Assembly: GCA_024637095.1 (NCBI GenBank)
Contig: JAGXFV010000048.1
Span: forward strand, 2,629 to 66,628
Direction: 5' to 3'
Origin: Actinomycetes bacterium
Lineage (GTDB): Bacteria > Actinomycetota > Thermoleophilia > RBG-16-64-13
Length of the DNA stretch: 64,000 bases
The translations under genes and the position numbers were made by a program. Shown in pieces: positions 37,186 through 51,109 of this stretch (position 1 is its first letter; every line of letters starts with the position of its first letter). The notes under the pieces were generated by a model. That model saw only the letters and a list, made by a program, of their open reading frames with translations, did not search any database and was not told the origin of the DNA.

Positions 37186-37281
37186 TCGCCCCTTCCCCTC
37201 ATGCGGTGCTCTTCATTAAGTTTCCCCCGTGCGATCGCCTCGTGCAGTATCGCATCGTGCGCGCGCGGGTAGAATCAATTC

Positions 37282-37308
37282 ATGTGCTGCCAACTACCCT
37301 CGGTCTAA
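37282..37308 (+). CDS. Candidate leaderless micro-ORF MCCQLPSV
   Basis: TAGAAT -10 box (37270-75), 6 nt, then ATG TGC TGC CAA CTA CCC TCG GTC TAA. Confidence 0.35.
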   Translation: MCCQLPSV

Positions 37309-37384
37309 GAACGGTTCGCCTGAGGCAGGGGCACGAGTCCGTTGACCTCGCTGCCCGGCATCCAGGAGGGCGGAAAGATCGAGG
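37298..37384 (+). ncRNA. Candidate structured leader RNA (three-helix junction) upstream of ligC
   Basis: Nested helices CCTCGGTC/GATCGAGG, AACGG/CCGTT and CTGCCC/GGGCGG; no known family recognised. Confidence 0.3.
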
Positions 37385-37421
37385 ACATGAGGGCGGCGGA
37401 GGACCGGACATAGGAGAAACC

Positions 37422-38453
37422 GTGGAGAGCTTCCCCTTCGATCCCCCCATCCTCCCCATGGAAGCGGTGGTGAAAGACGAGCTGCCCTCGCCGCCGGGCT
37501 GGGCCTACGAGCCGAAGTGGGACGGATTCAGGGTGGTGGCCTGGTCCGGGCCACCACCCCGGCTGGACAGCCGTAATGCCAAGCCCCTGCTACGGTACTT
37601 CCCCGAGATCCGGCCGTCGCTGGAGGGCCTGCCGGAGGGAACGGTCGTGGACGGGGAGGTGGTGGTCGTCCTGGAGGGCATGCAGAACTTCGACGCTCTG
37701 CAGAACCGGGTGCATCCCGCGGCCAGCCGCGTGGAGAGGCTTTCGCGGGAAACGCCGGCCCAACTCGTGGCTTTTGACCTTCTCGCCCTTCGCGGCCGGG
37801 ACCTACGTGGCTCGCCTTTCGGCGAGCGCCGAGCCGCCCTTGAAGAATTGGCGTCGGACCTGCCCGCGGGCTGGAGCCTCACACCCTCCACGCAGAATCT
37901 CGATACGGGGAAGCGCTGGTTCCATGAATTCGAATCGGCCGGATGCGACGGCATCGTCGCCAAGCGGTTGAACGGGCGCTACGTCGAGGGCAAGCGCGAC
38001 ATGGTCAAGGTGAAGCATCGGCGAAGCGTCGACGTGGTCGTGGGCGGCTACCGGCTGCACAAGCTGGGTGATCGGGTGGGCTCGCTGCTCCTCGGTCTAT
38101 ACGATTCTCGGGGGCAGCTGCACTTCATCGGCCACACTTCGGGTCTAAAGGAGGGCGAGGCGATCTCGTTGCTGTCGGAGCTCGAGGAGCTGCGGACCGA
38201 GGAGTCCTTCGGGCGCGAGGCGCGGCGGCCCGGAGGCGAGAGCCGCTGGGCTTCGGGCAAGGACCTGTCCTGGATTCCTGTGGCGCCGGAGTTGGTGGCT
38301 CAGATCAGCTACGACCAACTGACCGGCGAACGCTTCCGCCACGCCACCAGGCTGGAGCGCTGGCGACCCGACAAGGACCCCGAGGCATGCACCATGGATC
38401 AGCTGGAACGGCCCGAAGGACCTGAGTTCAGCCAGGTGGTCTTGGGCGGATAG
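37422..38453 (+). CDS. ligC: ATP-dependent DNA ligase, LigC-type (catalytic core only)
   Basis: YEPKWDGFR, DGEVV, AFDLL, DGIVAK, MVKVKH, FRH; GTG 37422 after AGGAGA. Confidence 0.85.
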   Translation: MESFPFDPPILPMEAVVKDELPSPPGWAYEPKWDGFRVVAWSGPPPRLDSRNAKPLLRYFPEIRPSLEGLPEGTVVDGEVVVVLEGMQNFDALQNRVHPAASRVERLSRETPAQLVAFDLLALRGRDLRGSPFGERRAALEELASDLPAGWSLTPSTQNLDTGKRWFHEFESAGCDGIVAKRLNGRYVEGKRDMVKVKHRRSVDVVVGGYRLHKLGDRVGSLLLGLYDSRGQLHFIGHTSGLKEGEAISLLSELEELRTEESFGREARRPGGESRWASGKDLSWIPVAPELVAQISYDQLTGERFRHATRLERWRPDKDPEACTMDQLERPEGPEFSQVVLGG

Positions 38454-38467
38454 CTGCCTCGGTAGTG

Positions 38468-39505
38468 TTACCGCCTTCGGCGTTTCGAGGGCTGCACCCG
38501 CGGAGGCTCGTCAGGTTGCTTGCGAAAGTGTGGCGGCCAGGGGGCATCCTCTTTTCCCGATTGAGCCTGCTCGTCATACAGCTCGAGGAGCCCGTCGAGC
38601 CGTCCCGACGCTTCGTCTATGCCCTCCGTCAGGTCACCCACGTCGGCGTAGCGGTCGGTGAATCCCTGCATGGGGAAGTCCTCGGGTTCCACTCCGGGCA
38701 CTTCTTCCCAGCGCAGCGGCGCGGAGACAAGGCCCGTCTGGCGGACGCTATAGGCGCTTGCCACCGTGCGGTCCCGGGCGTTCTGGTTGTAGTCGATGAA
38801 CACCCCACGGCGCTCTTCCTTCCACCAGGCGCTCGTGGCCAGATCGGGATGCCGGCGTTCGACTTCACGCGCCAGCGCCAGGGCAGCGCGGCGTACGTCA
38901 ACAAACTCCCACGCGGGTTCGATCCGCACCAGCAGGTGAATTCCTCGAGAACCAGAGGTCTTCGGCCAGGCAACCAGCCCTTTTTCGGCCAGCACTTCCC
39001 GGCAGGCGAGGGCGGCCTCCCGGACCGCCGCGAATCCCACTCCCTCCGAGGGATCCAGATCCACCCGCAATTCGTCGGGGCGATCGAGGTCTGGCACCCT
39101 CACCGGCCAAGGATTGAAGTCGATACAGTTCAACTGCACCATCCAGAGCAGGTCGGCTTCCTGACGGGGAACCAGCAGGTCGGCAGAGCGGCCCGAGGGG
39201 AACTGGATGGTGGCGAACTCGCGGGCCGGTTCCGGCGCCTGCCGACCGTCAGCGGTCTTGGCCTCGCCGCCCTGTTTGGGCGCCCGCTTCTGAAAGAACG
39301 GTTCGGCACCGGCTCCCCGCGGCCAGCGCTTGAGTACTGTGGGCCTCCCCTCTACGCCGCGCAGCGCGCCGTCGCTGCAGGCCACATAGTGGCGAGCCAA
39401 GTCGGCCTTGGTCCACCCTTGCCGGGGGAACATCAACTTGTCGGGGTGGGTTAGGCGGACGTTCCCGCCTTTGACCTCGAAGATCATCTCGTCGTTGCCT
39501 GCCAT
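38468..39505 (-). CDS. Stand-alone LigD-type primase-polymerase (Prim-PolC-like)
   Basis: LTHPDKLMFP, RWPRG, FFQK, DLDP, KTSGSRGIH, FIDYNQN, SAYSVR. Confidence 0.9.
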   Translation of the reverse strand: MAGNDEMIFEVKGGNVRLTHPDKLMFPRQGWTKADLARHYVACSDGALRGVEGRPTVLKRWPRGAGAEPFFQKRAPKQGGEAKTADGRQAPEPAREFATIQFPSGRSADLLVPRQEADLLWMVQLNCIDFNPWPVRVPDLDRPDELRVDLDPSEGVGFAAVREAALACREVLAEKGLVAWPKTSGSRGIHLLVRIEPAWEFVDVRRAALALAREVERRHPDLATSAWWKEERRGVFIDYNQNARDRTVASAYSVRQTGLVSAPLRWEEVPGVEPEDFPMQGFTDRYADVGDLTEGIDEASGRLDGLLELYDEQAQSGKEDAPWPPHFRKQPDEPPRVQPSKRRRR

Positions 39506-39656
39506 TTCGCTCCCAATCCTGGTTGGGGCTTGACCGGTGGAGAAGGTACCCTGTTGCGGGCCGGGAATACGCAGGTGAAAGGTCGCTGCGCCGTGGGTCC
39601 TGGCCGTGCAGCGGGGCGCAGTTGGTGCGAGTGGCGGCCCGCGGCCGGATGCAACC

Positions 39657-40868
39657 ATGCGGCATAAGCCGAGGAGTCAAGCCCGGGTGCATAGACTCAG
39701 TCAGATCTGGCATGTCATAGGGGAGGCGTTTTCCGATTGGCAGGAGGACGGCGCCTCCCGCCTTGCCGCCGCCCTCGCGTATTACGCCGTCTTCTCGCTG
39801 GCGCCGACCGTGATCATCGCGGTTTCCGTGGCCGGCTACATCTTGGGCCAAGGCCGGGCCGAGCAGGAAGTGCTCAGCCAGGTGGAGACCTGGCTTCAGA
39901 GCGAAGAGGCCAGCCGCCAGGTGGAGCGCATCCTGATCAACGCCAGACAGGCAGGAAGCACCGGCACGATCGTGGGAATCGGCGGGTTGGTCTTCGGCGC
40001 CACGGTCTTTTTCGCCAGCCTACAAGACGCCCTGAACATCATCTGGGAGGTCAAACCCAAGGGCCGCGGTCCTATCCTTGGCTTCCTCAAGAAACGGGCG
40101 ATCTCTTTCCTGATGATCATCGGCCTGGGCGCGCTGGTGATAGCTTCTCTGGTCTCGAGCACCGTGCTGACCGCCTTGGGCGGGTACTTCGAGGATGTCG
40201 TGCCCTTGCCCACCGGCTGGCTGCAACTGGCCAACCTGCTGGTCTCATTCGTGCTGATCACGGTGCTGTTCGGAGCGGTGTACAAGATCCTGCCCGACGC
40301 CCGTATTGCCTGGAGCGACATTTGGATCGGGGCGGGGATCACATCCTTCCTATTCGTCGTGGGCGCTTTTGGGTTGAGCGTGTACTTCGCCTTCAGCAGT
40401 GTGGGCTCGGCCTACGGGGCCGCCGGTACCCTTATCGTCATCATCGTGTGGATCTACTGGTCGTCTCAGATCATTCTGTTCGGGGCTGAAGTCACGCAGG
40501 TCTACGCCAACCGCTTTGGCCGCAGCATCGTGCCCGAGGAGGGTGCGGAGTACCGGCCTGGAGCCCACCGGTCTCGGCAGGTCAAACGCCGCCCCGAGTT
40601 GGCGGAAGGGGATACTCCCGACGAGCGGCGCGAAGCCGCGAAACGCGAGGCCCTGCATCGTGAGCATCAGAGCGGCCGCGAGCGCGAGGCCGTCCATGAG
40701 CCGGAGAACCGGCTGAAGAGTCGGCGGCAAGATCGCGTTCAGGTAGGCCGCAACAATCGTGCGGACCGATCGGCGGGGCGCCGAACCGGATCCGTTCTGT
40801 TGACCATGGCCGCAGGGGGACTGGTTGCCGAATTGGCCCGCCGCACCATCGTTCGAATGCGAAGATAG
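39657..40868 (+). CDS. YihY/virulence factor BrkB family membrane protein
   Basis: AAALAYYAVFSLAP, LNIIWEV, YKILPD, YGAAG, WIYWSSQI.LFGAE. Confidence 0.9.
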   Translation: MRHKPRSQARVHRLSQIWHVIGEAFSDWQEDGASRLAAALAYYAVFSLAPTVIIAVSVAGYILGQGRAEQEVLSQVETWLQSEEASRQVERILINARQAGSTGTIVGIGGLVFGATVFFASLQDALNIIWEVKPKGRGPILGFLKKRAISFLMIIGLGALVIASLVSSTVLTALGGYFEDVVPLPTGWLQLANLLVSFVLITVLFGAVYKILPDARIAWSDIWIGAGITSFLFVVGAFGLSVYFAFSSVGSAYGAAGTLIVIIVWIYWSSQIILFGAEVTQVYANRFGRSIVPEEGAEYRPGAHRSRQVKRRPELAEGDTPDERREAAKREALHREHQSGREREAVHEPENRLKSRRQDRVQVGRNNRADRSAGRRTGSVLLTMAAGGLVAELARRTIVRMRR

Positions 40869-40935: not shown

Positions 40936-41751
40936 CTAGGGGAGGGAGGAGCTACTGCCCTCCGAATAGCCCTTGGCTACCTGCAGGTGCAGATGGCTTC
41001 CGGAATCATGAGTGTACTCGGCCAGTCGGGCTCCCAGATCGCCCTGGGCCTCCCGCACCTTGCCGAGTTGAGTCTTGCCGGCCGTCACAGTCTGGCCGAT
41101 CGTGACGGCCGGCTCGTCGATCAGCAGGAGCGATACCGTCAGATCTCCCAAGCCCTCGGGGCGGATGTCGATCTGCACGTCTTCGTACTTGCCGTAGAGC
41201 TGATAGGTCCTCACGCCGGTGATCTGGCCGGAGACGGGGCTGACCACCACGGCTCCGGGGGATGCCCCGATTTCCACCGCCCCGGTTTCCACATCCGAGC
41301 GCCCGCGCTCGCCCACCGTGTAGTAGCGGATGGAGGATTCTCCGGAAAACACCCTCTCGAGGCCCCGCGAGACGACGCTTGCGTTGACGCGGCTTCCCAA
41401 CGGGGTGAGCGGGACGGCTTTTTCGTCCGAGGTCGGAGAGTAAGCGATGATGGTGGCCTCCCCGGCGCTGACCGGCAGCACCAGGTTGCGGTCCTGGATC
41501 TTGGCGAAGACGGGATGGGTCTCCCCGGCGGTCGCCACCGGGCCCGAAGAGGGATCGTCCTCGACCAGAAGCTCCCCCGCGTTGACCTGAGAAGTGGAGC
41601 CCTCGGCGAGAGACATCACGGCATAAGCAGAGACAGAAAGCAGGAAAAGGGTCACCAAGGTGAGAAAGCGTAAACGGCGCCGTCGGATCTTGACGGCTCG
41701 CTGCTCCCGACGAAGTCGTTGGCGCAGATGTACTGAGGAGCCTTCTCCCAT
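40936..41751 (-). CDS. Membrane-anchored M23-peptidase-like protein, probably degenerate
   Basis: Basic N-terminus plus TM; GAVEIGASPGAVVVSPVSG and GSHLHLQV; HxxxD motif absent. Confidence 0.6.
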   Translation of the reverse strand: MGEGSSVHLRQRLRREQRAVKIRRRRLRFLTLVTLFLLSVSAYAVMSLAEGSTSQVNAGELLVEDDPSSGPVATAGETHPVFAKIQDRNLVLPVSAGEATIIAYSPTSDEKAVPLTPLGSRVNASVVSRGLERVFSGESSIRYYTVGERGRSDVETGAVEIGASPGAVVVSPVSGQITGVRTYQLYGKYEDVQIDIRPEGLGDLTVSLLLIDEPAVTIGQTVTAGKTQLGKVREAQGDLGARLAEYTHDSGSHLHLQVAKGYSEGSSSSLP

Positions 41752-41884
41752 TGGCCTTACATTAGCACTCGAGAACGGTAAGGGCCACGCGGAGACGCGC
41801 CCTGCGAAGGAGTGGAGGAGTATCATTGACCGCTGAGCCAAAGCCCTCGGACGCGCCGCGGGCCCCCGAGTCCTAGGAGAGAGC

Positions 41885-43141
41885 GTGCAGATCACCATCC
41901 CGCGTTGGGTGCAGTTGATTCTGATGCCGCTGGCGGTTTTGGCCGTCTTCTATCTGCTGCGCACGCTCAGCACGGCCGTCTTCGTCTTCCTGATGGCGGC
42001 GCTGCTGTCCCTGCTGCTCAATCCGCTGGTCCAATCGCTCTGCGCCCTGCGCATCCCCCGTTATCTCGCGGTTCCCATCGTTTATCTGAGCTTTGCCACG
42101 ATCCTGGTGCTCCTGGCGATCCTCGCCGTACCGCCCCTCGCGGCTCAGTTGAGAGCGCTGGGGGACAACGTACCGGAGTGGGCTTCTCAGGTTGAGTCCT
42201 GGCTTTCGGATCTGCAGACCTACCTGGCCGACCGGAATGTCGAGGTCAACCTGACCGCTTCGGTCGACCGCTTGGTGGTTTGGGTCGAGGATACAGCGCT
42301 GTCCACTGCGGGCACGGTATTCAACGTGACCTTCAACGTGCTCAGCTCGCTGGCCACGTTCCTCCTGATCGTCATTATCAGTTTCTATATGCTTTTCGAC
42401 GGCCGCCGCATCTTCAACTGGCTTCAACGCATCCTCCCCGGCGACGATGAGACCATGGCCGCCTACCTCTTCGGCCTGCAAGAGTCCTTCGTCCGCTACG
42501 TCAAAGGCCAGTTGCTTCTGGCCCTCGCCGTGGGACTCGCGGGAGGAATCGCCATCTGGAGCCTGGGCTGGGACGCGATCGACATCTGGCCGGAGGGAAG
42601 CCGGTACGCCCTGCTCTTTGGTGTGTGGGCGGGCGTCACGGAAGTGATCCCCTTTGTCGGCCCGTGGCTGGGCGCAACCCCGCCGGTGCTCTTGGCGCTG
42701 TTTCACGCTCCCGGCACCGCCCTCTGGGTCGCCTTCATCTACTTTGCCATTCAGCAGCTCGAGAACCACATCCTCGTGCCCAACATCATGGGCACCACGG
42801 TGGGGGTCCATCCTCTGGTGGTCATATTCGCCATCTTGGCTGGGGCCCAGGTGGGGGGCATCGTGGGCATGCTGGCCGTGCTGCCGCTACTTGCCATGGG
42901 CAAGCACACCATCAAGTTCTTTGATTTTCGCTTCTCTCGGGCGCCCTGGATCGCTGACGACGGCGTGTCCCTGAGGCTCGAGAGGCGTTCCCCCGGCGAA
43001 ACGGATGCGGTCCTCCCTGCGGTGACCGCAGAGCAGGAGCACAGCGGGATCCCGACCCAGGAGCAGGATCTGCCGGAGAAGCCGTCGGAAGAGCGCGGGC
43101 CTGAACGCCGCCCCGGTCCCGTCGAGCGACGGAGTTCCTGA
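41885..43141 (+). CDS. AI-2E family (PerM/UPF0118) transporter
   Basis: FYMLFDG, YVKGQ, EVIPFVGP, QQLENHILVP, VHPL..IFAIL.G. Confidence 0.9.
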   Translation: MQITIPRWVQLILMPLAVLAVFYLLRTLSTAVFVFLMAALLSLLLNPLVQSLCALRIPRYLAVPIVYLSFATILVLLAILAVPPLAAQLRALGDNVPEWASQVESWLSDLQTYLADRNVEVNLTASVDRLVVWVEDTALSTAGTVFNVTFNVLSSLATFLLIVIISFYMLFDGRRIFNWLQRILPGDDETMAAYLFGLQESFVRYVKGQLLLALAVGLAGGIAIWSLGWDAIDIWPEGSRYALLFGVWAGVTEVIPFVGPWLGATPPVLLALFHAPGTALWVAFIYFAIQQLENHILVPNIMGTTVGVHPLVVIFAILAGAQVGGIVGMLAVLPLLAMGKHTIKFFDFRFSRAPWIADDGVSLRLERRSPGETDAVLPAVTAEQEHSGIPTQEQDLPEKPSEERGPERRPGPVERRSS

Positions 43142-43192
43142 GCGACTACCATTCCTGGTAGAATCCGCGCCTGTACGTTCGAGGAGGAGCAG

Positions 43193-43798
43193 ATAGATAC
43201 CCTGCGGGATTTCTTTGGGTTTCGCCTTCGTCGGGCCTTCGAGCCCCTGATCCTAGGCCTTCAGAAACTCAACATCACCCCCAATCAGATCACAGTGACA
43301 GGAGCGCTGCTCAACCTCGCGGCGGCCGCGCTGGTCGTCGGCGACCGGTTGGTGCTGGCCGGGGTGGTTTTCGTGGTGGGCAGCCTGTTGGACATGCTCG
43401 ATGGGACCTTGGCTAGGCTGGCTCAGAAGGTATCGCCCTTCGGCGCATTCCTGGACTCGACTCTGGACCGGGCTTCGGAGGGGATCGTCTTGGCGGCTAT
43501 CGCCTACCGGATGGCGGAACAGGGCCGGCCCGTGGACGCGGCTCTGGTCGTGGTCGCACTGCTAGGTTCGCTTCTGGTGAGTTACACTCGTGCACGCGCC
43601 GAGGCGCTGGGGCTCGAGTGTAAAGTAGGCTTCATGAGCCGTCCCGAGAGGGTGGTGCTTCTCTCGATCGGCTTGTTCTTCGATCTCTTGCCCTACGTGG
43701 TCTACTTGCTCGTGGTGCTCACGACGGTGACCGTGGGGCAAAGAGTGGCGCATACGTACCGGCAACTCAGACCCGCCGAAGACGCGGCGGGAGAGTAA
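43193..43798 (+). CDS. pgsA: CDP-alcohol phosphatidyltransferase (phosphatidylinositol-phosphate synthase-like); probable ATA start
   Basis: [42 protein letters not shown]; ORF extends upstream of GTG 43295 to ATA 43193 after GAGGAGG. Confidence 0.8.
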
Positions 43799-43821
43799 GA
43801 AGATTATCTCTTAGGAGGCTT

Positions 43822-45036
43822 GTGGTGAGTGGAAAGGTGAGGGTCGCGATCATTGGTGTGGGCAACTGCGCCTCTTCGTTGGTCCAAGGAGTGGAGTTCT
43901 ACAAGAACGCGGCCGATGATGAATTCGTGCCCGGACTGATGCACGTGAATCTCGGGGGCTATCACATCTCCGATATCGAGTTCTCCGCGGCCTTTGACGT
44001 GGATAGGGAAAAGGTCGGCAAGGATCTCTCCCAGGCGATATTCAGCGGCATGAACAACACGGTGAAGTTCGCGGACGTACCCGAGATGGGCATCAAGGTG
44101 CATCGGGGAATGACGCATGACGGGTTGGGCAAGTACCTTTCGGAGGTGATCACCAAGGCCCCAGGACCCACGGACGACGTGGCCGGGATTTTGCGCGACA
44201 CCAAGACCGACGTGGTGATCAACTATCTGCCCGTGGGCAGCGAGGCTGCCACCAAGTGGTACGTGGAGCAGATTCTGGACGCCGGTTGCGCCCTGGTCAA
44301 CTGCATTCCCGTGTTCATCGGGCGCGAGGAGTACTGGCAGCAGCGCTTCGAGGAAAAGGACCTCCCGCTGATCGGCGACGACATCAAGTCGCAGGTAGGT
44401 GCCACCATCGTGCACCGGGTGCTCACCCGCCTGATGCGTGAGCGCGGGGTGCGGCTCGAGCGGACCAGCCAGCTGAACGTCGGCGGTAACACCGACTTCC
44501 TCAACATGCTGGAGCGCGAGCGGCTGGAGAGCAAGAAGATCTCCAAGACCAACGCGGTCACCTCTCAACTGGACTACGACCTGGGTGCCAAGAACGTCCA
44601 CATCGGCCCGTCGGATTACGTCGAGTGGCTGGACGACCGCAAGTGGGCCTACATCCGCATGGAAGGCCGCACTTTCGGCGACGTGCCCCTCAACGTGGAA
44701 CTCAAGCTGGAAGTGGTGGACTCCCCCAACTCTGCCGGCATCGTCATCGACGCCGTTCGTTGCGCCAAGCTGGCGCTCGACCGCGGTGAGTCGGGCGTGC
44801 TCTACGGCCCCTCCGCCTACTTCAAGAAGTCGCCGCCCATTCAGGTGCACGACGACATCGCCCGAGAGATGACCGAGGCCTTCATCCGCGGCGAAGCGCT
44901 TCCGGGCTATCCTTACGTTTCCGGGAAGGGTGGGGAGTCGGCTGGTTCCGTGGCGGCGAGTGAGGCTCCGATCGCTGCCGAGGAGCAGGCCCATCCGAAC
45001 GGGACCGGAGTGGTCGCCGGCGAGAAACAGGAATAG
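43822..45036 (+). CDS. ino1: Myo-inositol-1-phosphate synthase
   Basis: [61 protein letters not shown]. Confidence 0.96.
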
Positions 45037-45083
45037 GTATTCGTGGAGCCGGAGCGGAGGGAAGTCTGCCGCTCTGGTGAGGG

Positions 45084-47123
45084 ATGAGACAAAGGCAGCA
45101 TAGAGTCGCGCTGGTGACGCCCCTGGCCTGGGATGTCCCCAGCGCGATCAACTTTCACGTGGCCGAACTGGCACGGGAGCTTCTGCGGCTGGGCCATCTT
45201 CCGACGGTCATCGTTTCCTCGGACGACCCCGACGAGTTGCGGCGAATGCGGACCCTCTGCCGGCGCCGTTGCCGGGCCGCGCTCAAGCTTCTCCCCGAGT
45301 GGACCGCTTCCGCGGGCCAAGACTCAGAGCCGGAGGGGCCGATGGTCGGGCCCAATCCGGACCCGATGCTCCTGCCCACGCCGCGAACCGGGCCCATCGA
45401 GCCCAGCGAGGGCATTCCGGTACTGCCTCTGGGGCGCAGCTTCCATCTGCGCATCAACGGCTCGGTGGCGAACGTGGGCCTACCGGTGGATCTGCGCTCC
45501 CGGCTCGAGCGCCTGCTGGTCGGCGCAGGGTTTGACGTGGTGCACGCCCACGAGCCGGTCGCCCCCTCACTCAGTTTCACCGCCGTGCGCGAGTCGCGCA
45601 GCCCGGTGATCGCGACATTTCACATGTCGCCGGTGGGCATGGCCGGGCTGGAACTCGAGCACGGGCTGCTTGAACGTTTTTACCGGCGCCTGGACGCCCG
45701 GATCGTCACCTCTGAAGCGGGAGGCCGCGCGCTGGGGGAGCGCTTTTCGGGGGGGTTCGAGGTGATCCCGCCGGGGACGCGCCTCGGGGCCAAAGAGGCG
45801 GCCGGCTCGCCCCTAGTGGAGGAGGGCACCCTGCTCTACGTCTACCGGGGCGATGATCGCCGGGGCCTCAGGGCCTTTCTTCGAGCAATTGCCGACGAAC
45901 GGCCCCCGGGCCTCAATCGGCTGGTGGTAGCGGTGCATCGCCCTTCCGCCCTGGAGTGGCCGCCGCGTTCGGCGCCCCGGGGGCTTGCAGTGCCCGTGAC
46001 CTGGCACGAGTTCGAGGACATGACTGCGCTGGAGCCTCTCTACCGACAGGCGTCGGCTGTCGTCCTGCCTTATCTCGGCGGGGAGTGGCTGCAGCAGACC
46101 GGTCTGGAGGCGATCGCCACGGGGTGCGCGGTCGCTGCCCCCGACTTCCCACTATCCGCAGACATCCTGGAAGAAGCCCATGGACGGCTCTTCAGCCCTC
46201 GCAGCGAGCGGAGTCTCGCCCGGGCGCTGGCCGCGCTGCTCCCGCCCGAGCCCGCGGAGGGCGATGCCGCCTCGGCAGGGTCGAAGCCCGGCGCTTCGCC
46301 CACTGCGCATTCGCTCGAGGCCGTCACCCACAGAATTCTGAAGCTCTACGAGAAGACGCTTGATCGGGGTAAAGAGGAGGGCGAAGGCCGCGCTTATCCC
46401 ATCAAGACGGTCAAGTTCAGCCGCGCCGGAGTGCGCGACGACGGTCTGATCTACGCCGACCTGCACATCCACACCAACCATTCCAAAGACTCCACCAGCT
46501 CGGTCGCCGAGGTGCTCGAGGCGGCTTTCGAGGTGGGTCTCGGGGCTGTGGCCATAGCCGATCACGACACCATCGCCGGAGGGCTGGAGGCACGGGAGCT
46601 GGCCGGAGAGGACCTCGACGTCATCGTCGCCTCGGAGATCAAGACGTCGGTCGGGGAGGTAATCGGACTGTTTCTCGAGGAGGAGGTGCCCGGTGGGCTT
46701 TCCTTCGAGGAGACGCTAGGCCTGATCAAGGAGCAGGGGGGCCTGGTCTACATCCCCCATCCTTTCGACGGGCTCCGTTCCACCCCGTCTTACGAATCCA
46801 TGGTCGACAACCTCTATCGGATAGACGTCGTCGAGACCTACAACGCGCGGGTGGCGCTCTCCTCGTTCAACCTGAATGCCGAACGCTTCGCCAGCAAGTA
46901 CAACCTGGTGGCCGGAGCCGGCAGCGACGCCCACGTGCTTCCCGGGATCGGTACCGCGATGCTGAGAATGAGACCGTTCAGCGGCCCCGAGGAGTTCATG
47001 ACCGCACTGCGCGAGGCCGATATCGTCACCCACCGCAAGAACCTGCTCTACCTGCAATCACTGAAGTTTTTGCAGACCACCCTGGACCACGTCCTCCCCA
47101 CCGGGGCGGACACCGGACGGTGA
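45084..47123 (+). CDS. PimA-like GT4 glycosyltransferase fused to C-terminal PHP phosphoesterase
   Basis: HEPVAPS, ATFH, GGEW...LEA; PHP motifs DLHIHT, AIADHD, IPHP, GSDAH. Confidence 0.82.
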   Translation: MRQRQHRVALVTPLAWDVPSAINFHVAELARELLRLGHLPTVIVSSDDPDELRRMRTLCRRRCRAALKLLPEWTASAGQDSEPEGPMVGPNPDPMLLPTPRTGPIEPSEGIPVLPLGRSFHLRINGSVANVGLPVDLRSRLERLLVGAGFDVVHAHEPVAPSLSFTAVRESRSPVIATFHMSPVGMAGLELEHGLLERFYRRLDARIVTSEAGGRALGERFSGGFEVIPPGTRLGAKEAAGSPLVEEGTLLYVYRGDDRRGLRAFLRAIADERPPGLNRLVVAVHRPSALEWPPRSAPRGLAVPVTWHEFEDMTALEPLYRQASAVVLPYLGGEWLQQTGLEAIATGCAVAAPDFPLSADILEEAHGRLFSPRSERSLARALAALLPPEPAEGDAASAGSKPGASPTAHSLEAVTHRILKLYEKTLDRGKEEGEGRAYPIKTVKFSRAGVRDDGLIYADLHIHTNHSKDSTSSVAEVLEAAFEVGLGAVAIADHDTIAGGLEARELAGEDLDVIVASEIKTSVGEVIGLFLEEEVPGGLSFEETLGLIKEQGGLVYIPHPFDGLRSTPSYESMVDNLYRIDVVETYNARVALSSFNLNAERFASKYNLVAGAGSDAHVLPGIGTAMLRMRPFSGPEEFMTALREADIVTHRKNLLYLQSLKFLQTTLDHVLPTGADTGR

Positions 47124-47220
47124 AGGATTACCCGGCATCACCGCCAATATGTCACGTGCCCGCGCCCCACTGACCAGACTTCGGGATGGATGTGAGCAGC
47201 ATCAGAGACAGAAGAGCAGA

Positions 47221-47862
47221 ATGACCGGCAAACCTGGCGAGCAGCGCAAGCAGGCGCCCACACCCGAGCCCGCCGATCTTCGCAGCAGACTGGAAGAGCG
47301 GGCGATCGCGGAGAGCAACGAACTCAACCGCCGCATCGTGCACTGCCGCTCGTGCCGCCGCAGCGAGTACCTGCCCACCGTGGGCTCTGGGCATCCGCTG
47401 GCGGACATCGTCATGATCAAGTACCGCCCCCGCTACCTCGAGGTCAGCGAGGGAGTCTCCTTCTTCGGCCGGGCGGGAAGCGCCGTGCTCAAGAGTGCTG
47501 AACGCCTGGGCATCGATCCCCTGCTTCTCTACGGCACCAATGTGATCAAGTGCGGGGGGCTCGAGGAGGTTGACGGCGAGCGCGAGTGCGCCACGTTCTT
47601 GCTCGAGGAGTTGCGCATCGTGCAGCCGAAGATGATCGTGGTCATGGGGCGTCAGGTGCTGGAGGTATTGAACGCCAACCGGGTGGCCGGCACCCGGGAG
47701 TTGAGCTGGGATCCGGGCGTAATACAGGAGTACAGCCCTTTCTGTCAGGCGCTTGTCACTCCCGACGTGGACACTTCTCTCGACGATGCCGACGCGAAGG
47801 CCGAGTTCTGGAAGGCCTTCCGCGTGCTGGGCGACTGGCATCGGGACCAGCCACCCTACTGA
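47221..47862 (+). CDS. Uracil-DNA-glycosylase family-4-like fold protein, atypical active site
   Basis: CxxC, FFGRAG, TNVIKC...C, QPKMIVVMG; the GEAPG and HPS motifs are replaced. Confidence 0.55.
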   Translation: MTGKPGEQRKQAPTPEPADLRSRLEERAIAESNELNRRIVHCRSCRRSEYLPTVGSGHPLADIVMIKYRPRYLEVSEGVSFFGRAGSAVLKSAERLGIDPLLLYGTNVIKCGGLEEVDGERECATFLLEELRIVQPKMIVVMGRQVLEVLNANRVAGTRELSWDPGVIQEYSPFCQALVTPDVDTSLDDADAKAEFWKAFRVLGDWHRDQPPY

Positions 47863-47898
47863 TCACCTCTACGGCTCGGCTTTCCGCGTGGCGATAGG

Positions 47899-48636
47899 GT
47901 GAAGCAGGGAGTAGGCGGGCTGGGATCGCCGCCTGTGATCGGCGCCGCGGCCCTGACGCTGGTGGCCACGTATCCTCTCTCTGCCTGGTTTCCCGAACCG
48001 ACCGACGCCCGCTTGGCTGCGCTGCTCGGTTTCCTTTTCGCGCTGGTTCCCGCGGCGCTGTTCATGGCCGGCATCTTGCTGGCCCCGCTCCCGCCCCGCT
48101 CCCTGGGCCTGATCGTCGTCATTGGTCTCGCGTTGGGATTCCTGGCCGCGTACTTAGAGGTGCCTGCCCTTGCCGCGCCCCTCAAGATCGTGGCGGCTGC
48201 AGCGGCCGGCCGCCTCCTGGGCGTGCACGTGCCCGGGCCCCGCTGGCTCGCTTTCATGGCGGCACTCGTGCTGCTGATCGATGCCTGGAGTGTGTTCTTC
48301 GGCCCGACCAAAGCCATCGTCGAAGCCACTCCATCCCTGCTGGAATACCTGCTGGTGGTTTTTCCCTCTGTAGGCGGAGGAGTCGGGGCCGCGCTCGGGG
48401 TCACCGATTTCGTGTTTCTGGCATTCTTCACGGTGGGCTCGGCGATTACCGGTCTTCGCCATCGCTTGGGCTTCGTGTCGATGGCCGCGAGCTTCGCTGC
48501 GTCGCTGGGACTGGCCACGGGACTGGACCGGGGTCTCCCCGCCCTGCCGTTATTGGGCTTGGCCTTCCTGTTGGCGAACGCAGACCTGCTGGCTTCGCGC
48601 CGCGACACCCGGCGGAAACCGCCCACGGCGCCTTAG
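47899..48636 (+). CDS. Polytopic membrane protein with presenilin/SPP-like motifs
   Basis: LIDAWSVFFGPT, LGVTDFVF and GLPALP in A22-family order. Confidence 0.55.
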   Translation: MKQGVGGLGSPPVIGAAALTLVATYPLSAWFPEPTDARLAALLGFLFALVPAALFMAGILLAPLPPRSLGLIVVIGLALGFLAAYLEVPALAAPLKIVAAAAAGRLLGVHVPGPRWLAFMAALVLLIDAWSVFFGPTKAIVEATPSLLEYLLVVFPSVGGGVGAALGVTDFVFLAFFTVGSAITGLRHRLGFVSMAASFAASLGLATGLDRGLPALPLLGLAFLLANADLLASRRDTRRKPPTAP

Positions 48637-50015
48637 GCGGTAGGCTCCAACAGGCCTACCGCCTCGATGTGCGGCGTATGGGGAAACATGTCCACCGGAG
48701 TGACGCGAACCAGCCGATAGCCGTGCTCGGCGAAGTCCTTTAAATTGTCGGCCATCGTTGCGGGATTGCAGGAGACGTAGACGATCCGGGCCGGGCGGGC
48801 CGCCGCGGCCCTCATGATTACCTTCTTGGCGAGTCCCCCGCGGGGTGGGTCGAGCACCACGACGTCCGGGTTTTCCAGTCCGGGAGGGAGGGACGCCCTC
48901 CCCTCCAAAACCTCTTTGAGCACCACGCGCGCATTGCCCTCGAGGAAGGTGGCGTTGCCGATTCCGTTCAGACGGGCATTGTCCCGCGCGTCCTCGACCG
49001 CGGGGGCCACCACCTCGATGCCAAGCACGGCGCGGGCCCGGCAGGCCAGGTAGAGAGCGATCGAGCCGATCCCCGAGTAGAGATCCCACACCACTTCATC
49101 GCCGGTCAGACCCGCCTCCTCGCCCGCCCGAGCGTACAGTTTCTCGGCCATCTCGGTGTTCGTCTGAAAGAAGGCGTCGATAGAAACCTTGAAGCGCAGC
49201 CCGCCCAGCTCCTCGAAGAGAAAGGGGCGGCCGTGGAGTACACGGTAGGGGAGGGCGGTCGCCACCTCGGCCTGACCGTCGTTCTGAGCATGGAGGATGC
49301 CGACTATCTGGGGAAACTCGGGCAGAAGGGCCTCAGGAAGACCCGGCGGCAGCCCGCCGGGAGCGGTCGCCAGGCTTAGCAGCAACTCGTTGGTGCGGCG
49401 TCCCTCCCTCACGGTCAGTTGGCGGAAGTATCCGGTCTGCGAGCGGGGATCCCACCCCGGCCGCCCACTCTTTCTTATCCACTGCTCTACACGCGTTCGC
49501 ACGGCCTCCGTTGCGCGCGAGACCAGGTGGCATTCGCTCATGGGGAGAACCTGGTCCCATCTCCCCGGGGGATGAAAGCCCACGAGCGGGCCCTCAGGAC
49601 TCGGGCCGATGGAGAACTCCACCTTGTTGCGGTAGCGCCATGGTTCCTCCATGCCGATGACGGGCCGCACCTCGAAGTCGGTCAGGCCGCCCAAACGCTC
49701 GAGCGACTCCCGCACCTGCCTCTCCTTGTACTTCAGCTGCGTCGGATAGGCTAGGCTCTGCCAGCGGCAGCCGCCGCAGGACCCGTAGTGGCGGCACCCC
49801 GCGTCTATGCGGTCCGCCGAAGGCCGGAGGATGGATTCCAGGCGCGCCTCGGCATAGCGGCGCTTCACTTTGGTGACGACGGCACGCACCCGGTCGCCGG
49901 GGACGGCGCCGGCGACGAAGACCACGAAACCGTCCAGGCGGCTTACCCCCTGTCCGCCGAACGCCAGGTTGTCGATTTCCAGCTCGATTTGGGTGCCGCG
50001 ACGCGGGCGTTCCAC
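48633..50015 (-). CDS. rlmD: 23S rRNA m5U1939 methyltransferase with TRAM domain
   Basis: TRAM (NLAFGGQGV), C..Y..CGGC, FFQTN, DLYSGIG, DPPRGG, YVSCNP, DMFPHT.H.E. Confidence 0.92.
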   Translation of the reverse strand: MERPRRGTQIELEIDNLAFGGQGVSRLDGFVVFVAGAVPGDRVRAVVTKVKRRYAEARLESILRPSADRIDAGCRHYGSCGGCRWQSLAYPTQLKYKERQVRESLERLGGLTDFEVRPVIGMEEPWRYRNKVEFSIGPSPEGPLVGFHPPGRWDQVLPMSECHLVSRATEAVRTRVEQWIRKSGRPGWDPRSQTGYFRQLTVREGRRTNELLLSLATAPGGLPPGLPEALLPEFPQIVGILHAQNDGQAEVATALPYRVLHGRPFLFEELGGLRFKVSIDAFFQTNTEMAEKLYARAGEEAGLTGDEVVWDLYSGIGSIALYLACRARAVLGIEVVAPAVEDARDNARLNGIGNATFLEGNARVVLKEVLEGRASLPPGLENPDVVVLDPPRGGLAKKVIMRAAAARPARIVYVSCNPATMADNLKDFAEHGYRLVRVTPVDMFPHTPHIEAVGLLEPTA

Positions 50016-50077
50016 CGGTTCTCCTCGCCTTGGACTACTTCCTTCTGCCCCTGAGCAGCGTGCTACTATACGCCGCC

Positions 50078-51109
50078 TTGCCCGCCTTCAGACGACATCT
50101 GCCCGAGTTCCTGCTGATCGGCGTGACCATGGTCTGGGGCGCGACCTTCGTCTTGGTGAAGGACGCCGTGGCCGTCTACCCCACCCTGCCCTTCCTGGCC
50201 ATCCGCTTCAGCCTGGCCGCGTTCTTGATGGCGGCGCTGATCCCTCTGGTCCGCCGCTTCCCCTTGCGTTCGGCGCGCGCCACGGAGCCGGCGTCCTTCG
50301 GCGCAGCCTTGCCCCCGGCGCTGGCCGAAGAATTGGAGGCCGAGGCTCGGCCGAGGAGCCGTCGGGGCCTGCTATTCGCCGGAACCTTGATGGGCATCTT
50401 TCTGTCGGCGAGCTATGTGTTCCAGACGCTGGGGCTCGAAGTGACCACCGCCTCCAATGCAGGCTTCATCACCGGGATGTTCGTGGTGCTGGTGCCCCTG
50501 CTCGAGTTGTTGTTGTGGCGGCGTTGGGTCGGAGGGCGGGCGCTGATCGGCGCCGGCATCGCCTTCGGCGGTCTGGTGCTTCTCTCCGGAGGCGCAGGTG
50601 GCGGCGAGGTGGGCGGCGACCTGCTCGTCTTTCTCTGCGCCCTGGGTTTCGCCGCCCACATCCTGGCGACGGCCCGCTACGCCGCCAACCACGACCCTCT
50701 GACTCTGAACGCCCTGCAGTTGGGCATGGTCGCCCTGGTGACCACGGCGCTCACTCTCGGAGCCAGGGGCACGGGCTCCCTGACCGACTTGGGCTGGCCA
50801 CGGGAAGGCCAGGTCTGGTGGGCCCTCGGCATCACGGCGGTGTTCGCCTCGACCTTGGCTTTTTTGATCCAGACCTTCGCCCAACGCTACGCACCGCCGA
50901 CTCGTACCGCCCTGATCCTTACTCTCGAGCCGGTCTTTGCCGGAGCGTTCGGCTTCGCGCTCGCCGGTGAGCGTCTGAGCCTGGCCGGGTGGGCAGGGGC
51001 CATTTTGATCATGACCGGAATTCTGCTCGCCGAATTCCGCCGTGAGGGCGGCAGAAAGAAGAAGGCCCGAGACACGGGTCCCGGGCCTTTGCCCATCCGC
51101 GGCCCTTAG
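50078..51109 (+). CDS. DMT/EamA family transporter
   Basis: [28 protein letters not shown]...[17 protein letters not shown]; start uncertain (TTG 50030 or TTG 50078 just after a TGcTACTAT box). Confidence 0.85.

Follow-up and report, generated by a model that had tools for sequence, protein, structure and literature searches.

The window, by which we mean the whole 64,000-nucleotide stretch of DNA that was analysed, carries on its forward strand consecutive genes for a phosphatidylinositol-phosphate (PIP) synthase, for the inositol-phosphate synthase Ino1, and for a protein that joins a GT4 glycosyltransferase to a PHP-type phosphoesterase (Table 1). A gene of the UDG superfamily follows, and the four are separated by 23, 47, and 25 nt. 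An earlier note on this DNA had read the gene after pgsA and ino1 as a PimA-like GT4 joined to a PHP domain, and both Pfam and PDB matches agree. The motifs it quoted could all be read in the fusion protein: HEPVAPS at residues 156-162, ATFH at 177-180, YVYRGDDRRG at 252-261, and EWLQQTGLEA at 334-343 in the GT half, and DLHIH at 459-463, DH at 493-494, PHPFD at 558-562, and GSDAH at 613-617 in the PHP half. It had also reported that PatA is absent, and our Pfam scan of 46 further window ORFs (six short ORFs left out) likewise found no PatA-type acyltransferase, no second GT4, and no HAD, IMPase, PAP2, or PgpA phosphatase. A PgpA domain is also absent from the fusion protein.

Table 1. Features of the inositol-lipid locus, with positions in the window
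Feature	Position	Strand	Details
Shine-Dalgarno-like GAGGAGGAG before PIP synthase gene	43181..43189	+	Direct sequence reading; 3 nt 5' of ATA 43193
PIP synthase (inositol-phosphate-using CDP-alcohol phosphatidyltransferase)	43193..43798	+	201 aa if ATA 43193 is the start
ino1, myo-inositol-1-phosphate (inositol-3-phosphate) synthase	43822..45036	+	404 aa; PF01658 E 3.8e-37; TIGR03450 542 bits
GT4-PHP fusion gene	45084..47123	+	679 aa; Glyco_transf_4, Glyco_trans_1_4, PHP, PHP_C (Pfam)
PimA-like GT4 N-terminal (acceptor-side) Rossmann domain, aa 1-235	45084..45788	+	PF13439, PF13579
Arg-rich amphipathic helices in N-domain insertion, aa 49-75	45228..45308	+	Predicted helices 49-58, 60-75
GT4 C-terminal (nucleotide-sugar) domain, aa 246-430	45819..46373	+	PF13692, PF00534
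PHP + PHP_C metal-dependent phosphoesterase domain, proposed PIP phosphatase, aa 455-650	46446..47033	+	PF02811, PF13263
Conserved C-terminal helix, aa 651-672, RKNLLYLQSLKFLQTTLDHVLP	47034..47099	+	Predicted helical, low confidence
UDG-superfamily (family-4-like) gene	47149..47862	+	PF03167 E 1.2e-7; directly 3' of fusion gene

The PIP synthase matched PF01066 in Pfam (E 7.9e-19), and its three best NCBIfam models were those for archaetidylinositol-phosphate synthase (archin_ph_syn, 163.6 bits against a cut-off of 180), the BT1523-type PIP synthase (PIPSynBT1523, 138 against 350), and PIP synthase (PIPSynth, 129.7 against 170). By sequence it is a divergent member of the family, since these same models score best though all below their equivalog cut-offs. 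Its PDB matches were M. tuberculosis PgsA1 (6h53, 3.7e-22) and R. salmoninarum PIPS (5d92). Aligned to 6h53, the catalytic signature D-x2-D-G-x2-A-R...G-x3-D-x3-D is complete (D67, D70, G71, A74, R75, G84, D88, and D92). In PgsA1, the phosphate of inositol phosphate is bound by S132, R152, R155, and R195, plus R94, K135, and R137 (PMC6506517). This pocket is kept in the same alignment, where S130, R133, R135, R150, R153, and R93 stand for S132, K135, R137, R152, R155, and R94, and the counterpart of R195 is probably the R of "GQRV", as seen in the 5d92 alignment only. With both signature and pocket retained, the product should be PIP, and a phosphatase would therefore be obligatory.

The annotated start of this gene is ATA, and ATG, GTG, and TTG are absent in frame from the upstream stop to GTG 43295. 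Starting at that first canonical codon would cut off conserved N-terminal sequence, and a putative 5' end at 43193 is plausible. In Ino1, the TIGR03450 match (NCBIfam) covers residues 6-355, and the C-terminal tail of about 45 residues is of low complexity.

The fusion protein was matched by Glyco_transf_4 (E 2.9e-17), Glyco_trans_1_4 (4.7e-9), PHP (4.5e-7), and PHP_C (3.3e-11). Its best solved relative was PimA, at 3e-24 with the single sequence and 4e-44 with a family profile. In the PDB profile search the GT half scored 154 bits with PimA, 53 with the next GT4, and 36-37 with MshA (3c4q, 3c48), and the PimA structures 4n9w and 2gej headed its Foldseek list. With PimA (GDP-mannose:phosphatidylinositol alpha-mannosyltransferase; M. 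smegmatis 2GEJ/4N9W, M. tuberculosis Rv2610c) it shares the GT-B fold, the HEP motif, and the residues R196, E274, and E282, as well as a genomic setting in which a PIP synthase gene adjoins, as in the mycobacterial pgsA1-patA-pimA operon. It differs in having about 22% identity, a C-terminal PHP domain, no patA nearby, and a 67-residue insertion with an Arg-rich helix (residues 46-112; the aligned PimA stretches are residues 1-40 and then 55 onward). Within the insertion, residues 53-70 (RRMRTLCRRRCRAALKLL) have a hydrophobic moment (muH) of 0.61 and a net charge of +8, and the Arg-rich amphipathic helices are likely a membrane-binding element. The whole protein has no transmembrane segment.

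The donor and catalytic residues of PimA, R196, K202, E274, E282 (EX7E), and H118, correspond to R255, R260, E334, E342, and H156, with only K202 changed, to Arg. The PimA Gly-rich loop G15-G16, a donor phosphate contact, has no counterpart, as the window protein has S20-A21 there, and "ESFG" is replaced by "EWLQ"; 55 of 168 relatives carry Glu at the position of G16. On the acceptor side, P13, N23, H154, and H156-E157-P158 are conserved in 157-168 of the 168 relatives. The donor site fares differently across the family: of 80 related genomes, about 60 no longer have equivalents of R196, K202, E274, and E282, while the GT N-domain and PHP persist there. The earlier suggestion of a degenerate GT thus suits this largest related clade, whereas in the window protein the divergence of the donor motifs is limited to flanking residues. 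Similarly, the idea of a phosphatase carried by a degenerate lipid-binding GT fold survives as a family-wide core but fails for the window GT itself, and nothing that we found pointed to a glycolipid other than PIM, which had also been suggested.

In the PHP half, the metal ligands H461, H463, D469, H494, E518, H559, D615, and H617 are in place, and the seventh of the nine positions has two candidates, the invariant E584 and N587. The ligands had been described as intact, and this holds for the eight that could be placed; D459, H461, H463, D469, H494, E518, H559, D562, E584, N587, D615, and H617 are each conserved in 166-168 of 168 relatives. An AF2 model of the domain (pLDDT 84.7, pTM 0.81) has the PHP barrel fold. 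Its Foldseek matches included TM0559 (2anu, 7.5e-12), RNase AM (7ug9, 1e-11), and 2yb1 (1.2e-7), and the nearest solved structures belong to proteins that either are uncharacterised or cleave phosphoesters in nucleotides and nucleic acids (TM0559, RNase AM, Cv1693, and EndoQ). The TrpH/YciV-type PHPs (RNase AM 7UG9/9ETK, Cv1693 2YB1, BAD_1165 3E0F) and TM0559 (2ANU), the best structural neighbours, share the barrel and the ligands HxH, D, H, E, H, and DxH with the window domain but are 17-26% identical, have nucleotide, RNA, or unknown substrates, and lack a GT fusion. We know of no PHP enzyme that acts on a lipid.

The fusion is found across Thermoleophilia, an actinomycetotal class from soils and springs, with at least 571 matches in species-level genomes. 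We examined the best 80 Thermoleophilia loci, and in all 70 with enough upstream DNA the order was PIP synthase, ino1, fusion; the synteny check named in advance by the earlier note thus came out in favour of a tight link to pgsA and ino1. The gene upstream of the fusion was 62-87% identical to the window ino1 in 77 of the 80, and the end of the ino1 match lay less than 400 nt from the fusion start in 56 of those 77. The gene order was identical even around a fusion member of 45% identity. Conserved order spans about 10 genes within this one class, including rumA, eamA, and clpB, so that the fusion may adjoin ino1 and PIP synthase in part through common descent and not through function. The PHP domain is the best-conserved part (54-68% identity to the window, 82% within clade C, against 25-40% for the GT C-domain). 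Across the 168 relatives, near-invariant PHP ligands set against the frequent loss of the GT donor site suggest that selection has acted on the phosphatase. Contig L092, where a standalone PHP gene occupies the corresponding place between ino1 and a UDG-like gene, points the same way.

We propose that the three genes act together as a module for making phosphatidylinositol (PI) de novo. Ino1 would convert glucose-6-phosphate to 1L-myo-inositol-1-phosphate (= D-inositol-3-phosphate), the CDP-alcohol phosphatidyltransferase would join inositol phosphate to CDP-diacylglycerol to give PIP, and the PHP domain, a multinuclear metal phosphoesterase, would remove the ring phosphate of PIP to give PI. 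The conserved acceptor-side domain and the Arg-rich amphipathic helix would be the means by which the fusion protein acts. In the window clade, where the donor site is intact, the same polypeptide probably also adds a sugar to PI to form PIM1, by homology most likely mannose from GDP-mannose. The PHP domain is the best candidate in the locus for the PIP-to-PI step, and its PimA-like partner supports this role because PI, the substrate of PimA, is the product of PIP dephosphorylation. We lean modestly towards this combined reading, in which the PHP domain makes PI and the window GT probably also makes PIM1. Its products exist in cultured Thermoleophilia, a further point in its favour: PI is the main polar lipid in Conexibacter woesei (PMC3035278), and both PI and PIM were detected in a Solirubrobacter strain (PMC10722151).

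The earlier statement that the PIP phosphatase of Actinomycetota has no assigned enzyme stands: it was still termed unidentified in July 2026, with EphE a proposed candidate only (bioRxiv 10.64898/2026.07.15.738315). Among other bacteria, one is already known. In the inositol lipid cluster of Bacteroides thetaiotaomicron, the gene for the PIP phosphatase BT_1525 (PIPPh) adjoins those for MIPS and PIP synthase, and its loss causes PIP to accumulate (PMC9246714). BT_1525 shares the role proposed for our PHP domain but is a membrane protein of the PgpA family without a GT fusion; the fusion protein may work like it, yet is not a member of that family. Mycobacterial EphE is predicted to sit in a PimA-ML0451c-EphE complex (bioRxiv 10.64898/2026.07.15.738315), an independent precedent for pairing a PIP phosphatase with PimA. 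The logic of physical coupling to PimA at the membrane is shared, whereas there the candidate is an alpha/beta-hydrolase held by a LemA/Nudix scaffold, and here a covalently joined PHP metalloenzyme. If our reading is right, the PHP domain would add a third solution, unrelated by homology to the Bacteroides PgpA type and the proposed EphE.

Alternatively, the PHP domain could belong to a soluble head-group pathway, either as an inositol-monophosphate phosphatase that releases free inositol or within an MshA/MshA2-like pair that turns inositol phosphate into glycosyl-inositol. The MshA/MshA2 system resembles the locus in its GT4, which takes an inositol-phosphate head group, its subsequent phosphatase, and its dependence on ino1, and to our knowledge no enzyme is assigned to the MshA2 phosphatase of mycothiol synthesis. 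The position of ino1 directly upstream in 77 of the 80 loci fits, as does contig L092 (a single contig of 1.3 kb), where a standalone PHP, 54% identical and with all ligands, lies 7 nt after ino1 and before a UDG-like gene; an inositol-monophosphatase would account for both equally well. We nonetheless consider this reading unlikely. The GT half is much nearer PimA than MshA (154 versus 36 bits), no MshA NCBIfam model was among the matches at E 0.01, and the donor site is gone in most of the family. The locus is tied to a lipid synthase whose substrate is inositol phosphate itself; PI synthesis can therefore do without free inositol, and an inositol monophosphatase would compete with it. Finally, the protein carries an Arg-rich amphipathic helix, and no soluble-pathway partner accompanies it.

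The structural neighbours raise a different explanation, in which the PHP domain is a nucleic-acid or nucleotide phosphoesterase (RNase AM or pAp-phosphatase-like, or PolX/EndoQ-like), partnering the UDG-like gene or clearing nucleotide by-products such as CMP and GDP, with a merely historical link to inositol lipids. RNase AM, Cv1693, and EndoQ are indeed among the nearest solved folds, and standalone Chloroflexota homologues lie near dprA, topA, and xerC. The UDG-like gene is found 3' of the fusion in 77 of the 80 loci, adjoins the standalone PHP of L092, and occurs in the L085 and P0091 contexts too. However, the UDG-like protein scored 53.9 bits with Arch_udg (NCBIfam cut-off 250) and, on direct reading, lacks the family-4 catalytic motifs, and no UDG adjoins the Chloroflexota homologues. 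The models for RNase AM (RNase RNM) and nucleoside-bisphosphate phosphatase were missed by a wide margin (NF047791, 28.2 bits against 375; NF041577, 27.7 against 400), with only the first ~65 residues matching, and a class-wide covalent fusion to a PimA-like lipid GT fold would make no sense for nucleic-acid metabolism. We regard this explanation as improbable.

The order of the two activities could also be reversed, with the GT first glycosylating PIP and the PHP domain dephosphorylating the resulting glycosyl-PIP. Glycosylation precedes dephosphorylation in the synthase/phosphatase pairs for trehalose-phosphate, sucrose-phosphate, and mannosyl-3-phosphoglycerate, and fusions for compatible solutes (sucrose-phosphate synthase with an SPP-like domain, TPS-TPP, and MgsD) place the GT before the phosphatase and pass through a phosphorylated intermediate. 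The domain order here matches theirs, and both the window clade and clade B retain the donor-site residues. Those fusions, however, have HAD phosphatases, soluble substrates, and a GT that acts first, whereas here we see a PHP domain, probably a lipid substrate, and probably a phosphatase that acts first. Since about 60 of the 80 related genomes lack a plausible donor site but still have an invariant PHP domain, and L092 lacks a GT altogether, the phosphatase cannot need the product of its own GT family-wide. PI itself is moreover the chief lipid of Conexibacter (PMC3035278), and we judge this order very unlikely.

A general head-group phosphatase, acting on PGP besides or instead of PIP with the PimA-like module as a mere membrane anchor, would fit the promiscuity of several Pgp enzymes, the action of the PgpA-family BT_1525 on PIP, and the occurrence of standalone homologues, their C-terminal tails basic, in phyla from which PI is not known. 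We take it to be highly improbable, given that the conserved acceptor-side domain is more than a membrane helix and that the gene is linked to PIP synthase and ino1, not to a PG synthase.

Returning to the PIP phosphatase reading, we tentatively extend it, at somewhat less than even confidence, to the whole family. PHP+PHP_C enzymes would then include an unrecognised phospholipid head-group phosphatase, in Thermoleophilia a PIP phosphatase guided to PIP by a module derived from PimA. As part of the same joint reading, that module would still transfer mannose in some clades, and in most it would be a catalytically dead pseudo-glycosyltransferase that binds the substrate. A further, less likely extension would make the standalone homologues of about 220 residues, which occur in Chloroflexota and elsewhere, the missing phosphatases for PGP or PIP as well. 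Among standalone PHP+PHP_C proteins, the nearest share about 39-44% identity and come from MAGs, those labelled being Dehalococcoidia/Chloroflexota; their neighbourhood, without inositol genes, runs topA-xerC-pepP-(efp)-PHP-formyltransferase. Alignment A1 shows no variation at Y656, S659, L660, K661, L667, and D668, which lie in the C-terminal helix that follows the PHP domain of the fusion.

The window, with a G+C content of 61-67%, belongs to an uncultured bacterium of the Thermoleophilia, a class within the Actinomycetota. The sequence is matched letter for letter by contigs from two cold-spring metagenome runs, and its nearest genomic relatives are Thermoleophilia and Actinomycetota MAGs. 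On the forward strand, genes for a phosphatidylinositol phosphate (PIP) synthase, Ino1, and a fusion of a PimA-like GT4 glycosyltransferase (GT) to a PHP phosphoesterase domain (GT::PHP) lie head to tail across 43193-47123, separated by gaps of 23 and 47 nt. An earlier note on this DNA had drawn attention to these three genes, and all of them, with every motif that it quoted, are present in the sequence. A promoter and terminator scan of 41500-50200 returned counts no higher than chance. RNA data were uninformative on the operon: the source-study metatranscriptome held no contigs matching the locus, and a soil RNA run held just scattered ino1 fragments of relatives.

Positions and domain matches of the genes discussed
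Feature	Position (strand)	Domains and matches
PIP synthase	43193-43798 (+)	CDP-alcohol phosphatidyltransferase, PF01066 (E 7.9e-19)
ino1	43822-45036 (+)	PF01658 (E 3.8e-37); TIGR03450 (542 bits)
GT::PHP fusion, 679 aa	45084-47123 (+)	Glyco_transf_4 and Glyco_trans_1_4 in first ~430 residues; PHP and PHP_C at ~455-650 (Pfam)
UDG-like gene	47149-47862 (+)	
Predicted membrane protein, 245 aa	47899-48636	no Pfam or NCBIfam match
ORF, 635 aa	35278-37185 (-)	DUF2064 (glycosyltransferase-like), Radical_SAM, SPASM
ATP-dependent DNA ligase (+) and LigD-type primase-polymerase (-)	37206-39658	

Bacteria and archaea synthesize phosphatidylinositol (PI) via PIP, and the Actinomycetota are the phylum of the mycobacteria, makers of PIM, LM, and LAM. 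To our knowledge, a PIP-dephosphorylating enzyme is known from Bacteroides only. That enzyme, BT_1525, is a PgpA-family protein (PMC9246714). A July 2026 preprint describes the PIP phosphatase of Actinomycetota as "as-yet unidentified" and proposes as a candidate EphE, an alpha/beta-hydrolase predicted to form a complex with PimA (bioRxiv 10.64898/2026.07.15.738315). Other lipid head-group phosphatases in the literature examined are of the PAP2, HAD (PgpC, PgpP), or PTP type. No PHP-family lipid head-group phosphatase was found there, and no paper in the library searched combines "PHP domain," phosphatidylinositol, and mannosyltransferase. Members of the class do contain the pathway's products: in Conexibacter woesei, PI is the chief polar lipid (PMC3035278), and PI and PIM were reported by TLC for a Solirubrobacter strain (PMC10722151).

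The window synthase is predicted to make PIP, not PI, because it retains both the catalytic signature and the inositol-phosphate pocket. In an alignment to Mycobacterium tuberculosis PgsA1 (6h53; E 3.7e-22), the signature D67xxD70G71xxA74R75...G84xxxD88xxxD92 is kept, and S130, R133, R135, R150, R153, and R93 correspond to Mt S132, K135, R137, R152, R155, and R94. According to the PgsA1 structure paper (PMC6506517), these PgsA1 residues form the pocket that receives the phosphate group of D-inositol-3-phosphate, and R94 is characteristic of enzymes that use inositol phosphate. The top three NCBIfam models, each scoring under its curated cut-off, are archaetidylinositol-phosphate synthase, the BT1523-type PIP synthase of Bacteroides, and PIP synthase, all of which use inositol phosphate. 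A cell with such a synthase would therefore require a PIP phosphatase. Among 52 window ORFs scanned with Pfam, the 51 other than the fusion included no HAD, IMPase, PAP2, or PgpA phosphatase and no second GT4; nor was there a PatA-type acyltransferase among the ORFs scanned, as the earlier note had said.

The 5′ end of the synthase gene (43142-43295) has no in-frame ATG, GTG, or TTG before the GTG at 43295, and protein conservation extends back ahead of that GTG, to about 43193. The codon at 43193 is ATA, 3 nt downstream of GAGGAGGAG. Four related loci (L002, L004-L006) have ATG at the equivalent position; two others (L012, L003) have ATA as in the window and, 5-7 codons further upstream, a TTG in frame; the window reads TTC there. 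Assembly error was ruled out, as two independent assemblies are identical and a related strain has the same codons. The synthase likely uses a near-cognate start codon.

The GT half of the fusion is closest to PimA. Against solved structures, the family profile scored 154 bits for PimA (E 4e-44), 53 bits for the next GT4 (sucrose-phosphate synthase), and 36-37 bits for MshA, and PimA was the top Foldseek match of the full-length model (pLDDT 80.4, pTM 0.65). In the PimA alignment, R255, R260, E334, E342, and H156 of the window protein correspond to R196, K202, E274, E282, and H118. The window GT differs from PimA in having S20-A21 instead of the G15-G16 loop, "EWLQ" instead of "ESFG," and a 67-residue insertion. 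Within the insertion lies an amphipathic helix (aa 53-70; muH 0.61, net charge +8); no transmembrane segment was found in the fusion protein, which would most naturally be read as a peripheral, interfacial enzyme. The donor motifs had been called divergent, but in the window protein the divergence is confined to the surroundings of key residues that are themselves retained, and this GT is probably still active.

We aligned 168 family members. In the PHP domain, D459, H461, H463, D469, H494, E518, H559, D562, E584, N587, D615, and H617 are kept in 166-168 of the 168, with overall identity to the window of 54-68%, and of 82% inside the largest clade. The GT N-domain, on the acceptor side, keeps P13, N23, H154, and H156-E157-P158 in 157-168 members. 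The donor-side C-domain is 25-40% identical to the window, and only two small clades, A and B, retain its catalytic residues. In clade A (the window and L001-L007) the sequence reads "YVYRGDDRRG...LGGEWL....EA," and clade B (L008, L009, L017, L019, L023) has the canonical "RRKGL...GPE(S/T).......LEAMA." Clade C, which covers about 60 of 80 genomes (Thermoleophilaceae, Solirubrobacterales, and relatives), has "EERAAL" for "EPRKGM" and "EG.R..P..L(R/H/K)A" for EX7E, with Glu frequent at the G16 position. All four donor-binding residues are lost in clade C, and the C-domain is still 53% identical inside the clade; we read it as a putative folded pseudo-glycosyltransferase. Almost every lineage has the predicted PHP phosphoesterase, usually together with the acceptor-side half of PimA.

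The whole GT::PHP architecture is common to about 90 protein clusters, and at least 571 encoding stretches turned up when genomes, one for each species, were scanned. Those ranked in the top 80 are labeled as Thermoleophilia or its families (Thermoleophilaceae, Solirubrobacteraceae, Paraconexibacteraceae, and Baekduia are named), or just as Actinomycetota, Actinomycetes, or "uncultured bacterium." Among these 80 loci, ino1 lies upstream on the same strand in 77, the remaining three having no upstream DNA, and both the synthase and ino1 are upstream in all 70 with enough upstream DNA. The conservation of fusion and synteny that the earlier note wanted checked is thus class-wide. The end of the ino1 match is less than 400 nt from the fusion start in 56 of the 77; in the other 21, 0.4-6.4 kb of lineage-specific DNA intervenes, with heterogeneous ORFs, mainly secreted-looking or spurious high-GC, and no recurring pathway gene. 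A fusion member only 45% identical has the identical gene order, with synthase and ino1 overlapping by 4 nt. Gene order alone within one class is weak functional evidence, because the conserved block spans about 10 genes, including rumA, eamA, and clpB.

We infer all substrate assignments for the fusion. For the PHP domain, the function with the most support is conversion of PIP to PI, an assignment we consider somewhat likelier to be right than wrong. At the membrane, the PimA-derived partner would recognize the inositol-phosphate head group for the PHP phosphatase, and in clades A and B, the window included, the GT would still carry out the next step, PI to PIM1. As far as alignments and gene order indicate, the fusion joins an invariant PHP phosphoesterase to a conserved carrier derived from PimA, and it lies in the PIP-making operon of Thermoleophilia. 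The earlier proposal of a bifunctional enzyme, or of a phosphatase targeted by a degenerate GT, stands in part: the conserved PHP domain in this operon favors it, but the GT of the window protein is not degenerate.

The PHP domain may instead act on nucleic acids, for the UDG-like gene, downstream of the fusion in 77 of the 80 loci, is as faithful a neighbor as ino1. Solved structures nearest the domain are TM0559 (uncharacterised), RNase AM, BVU_3505, PsfC, BAD_1165, and the pAp phosphatase Cv1693, with EndoQ more distant; RNase AM, Cv1693, and EndoQ suit such a role, which offers no reason for the fusion to PimA. Phosphatases of pAp and of inositol phosphates are sister activities within the IMPase superfamily, and by analogy a comparable substrate shift within TrpH-like PHP enzymes would be chemically reasonable. 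A soluble inositol-phosphate phosphatase would fit the adjacency of ino1, but phosphatase and synthase would then be competitors for one substrate, and the fusion to a lipid enzyme would go unexplained. Glycosylation of PIP before dephosphorylation, and a soluble pathway like that of MshA/MshA2, are both argued against family-wide: nearly every lineage has the PHP domain, and the donor residues of the clade C GT are gone, so the phosphatase cannot depend on the product of its own GT.

Two natural variants round off the series. One relative's locus (L092; JGI 3300086455, Ga0683358_0171830, 1-1304) has a standalone PHP gene (P0262; 226 aa, 54% identical, all metal ligands) that begins 7 nt beyond the stop codon of ino1, with the UDG-like gene next in line; this one short contig appears to carry a natural version of the locus without the glycosyltransferase domain. 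A distant 607-aa fusion (P0091; JGI 3300056388, 17-kb contig) has decayed PHP ligands (DLRVR in place of DLHxH, GSAASGA in place of GAGSDAH) and is flanked by a CDP-alcohol phosphatidyltransferase on one side and the UDG-like gene on the other; ino1 is not adjacent. Two short proteins with PHP alone (P0147, P0149), encoded on long contigs, were treated as frameshift artefacts rather than natural splits, because their neighbors are fragmented on long-read assemblies and a GT ORF abuts the PHP ORF. The GT portion of L012 is likewise out of frame as extracted.

A PHP profile search returned 1,095 representatives at E <=1e-30, among them numerous standalone proteins of ~220 aa that have all the motifs. 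Relatives of one of these, P0295, come from MAGs, the labeled ones from Dehalococcoidia/Chloroflexota. Four Chloroflexota loci (L087-L090, gene at 5001-5648/5660) encode standalone ~215-aa PHP+PHP_C proteins, 39-44% identical to the window domain. Their tails are basic and in part hydrophobic, and the genes belong to a conserved dprA-topA-xerC-pepP-(efp)-PHP-Formyl_trans_N block. We rejected such homologs as independent support: this housekeeping context, in which (from topA onward) the P0295 relatives also lie, has no synthase, ino1, or UDG-like gene nearby, so the PHP subfamily overall is not tied to inositol lipids, and the four loci count against the generality of a lipid role. Also rejected, as an analogous phosphatase-PimA fusion, was P0093 (L081-L084), a 631-aa protein joining an N-terminal PAP2_3 membrane phosphatase/transferase domain to a PimA-like GT4 and named phosphatidylinositol alpha-mannosyltransferase by its sources; around it lie an LPG_synthase_TM gene and genes of a two-component system, with no PIP synthase. 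P0092 and P0094 are GT4::LPG_synthase_TM fusions.

Neither the reaction nor either fold is new; the novelty lies in the proposed assignment, together with the architecture and the pseudo-GT trend. Because a class-wide fusion couples a phosphoesterase to the very enzyme that uses PI, within a PIP-making operon, it is a concrete candidate. If the assignment is right, the PHP superfamily would join the families that dephosphorylate lipid head groups, and a glycosyltransferase fold would have been reused as a substrate-binding module once catalysis was lost. It would also support a PIP phosphatase and PimA acting as one unit, as proposed independently for mycobacteria, and would correct the annotation, at present "glycosyltransferase" or "TrpH," that the gene carries in over 500 genomes of Thermoleophilia.

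Besides the best loci, the UDG-like gene lies next to the fusion or PHP gene in L085, L092, and the P0091 context. In the window, its product has four Cys like those of the family-4 UDG Fe-S cluster but KYRPR in place of the family-4 GEAPG; it lacks the motif-B His and scores far under NCBIfam cut-offs. L007, L008, L012, and L085 have a weakly conserved version of the predicted membrane protein at the corresponding position downstream. Past the TIGR03450 match, Ino1 ends in ~45 low-complexity residues rich in Ala, Gly, and Glu (aa ~360-404), and Ino1 of relatives likewise runs beyond the conserved core. Elsewhere in the window, the 635-aa ORF has an unusual architecture, and the ligase and primase-polymerase, separate genes placed tail to tail, look like an ordinary split NHEJ LigD arrangement.
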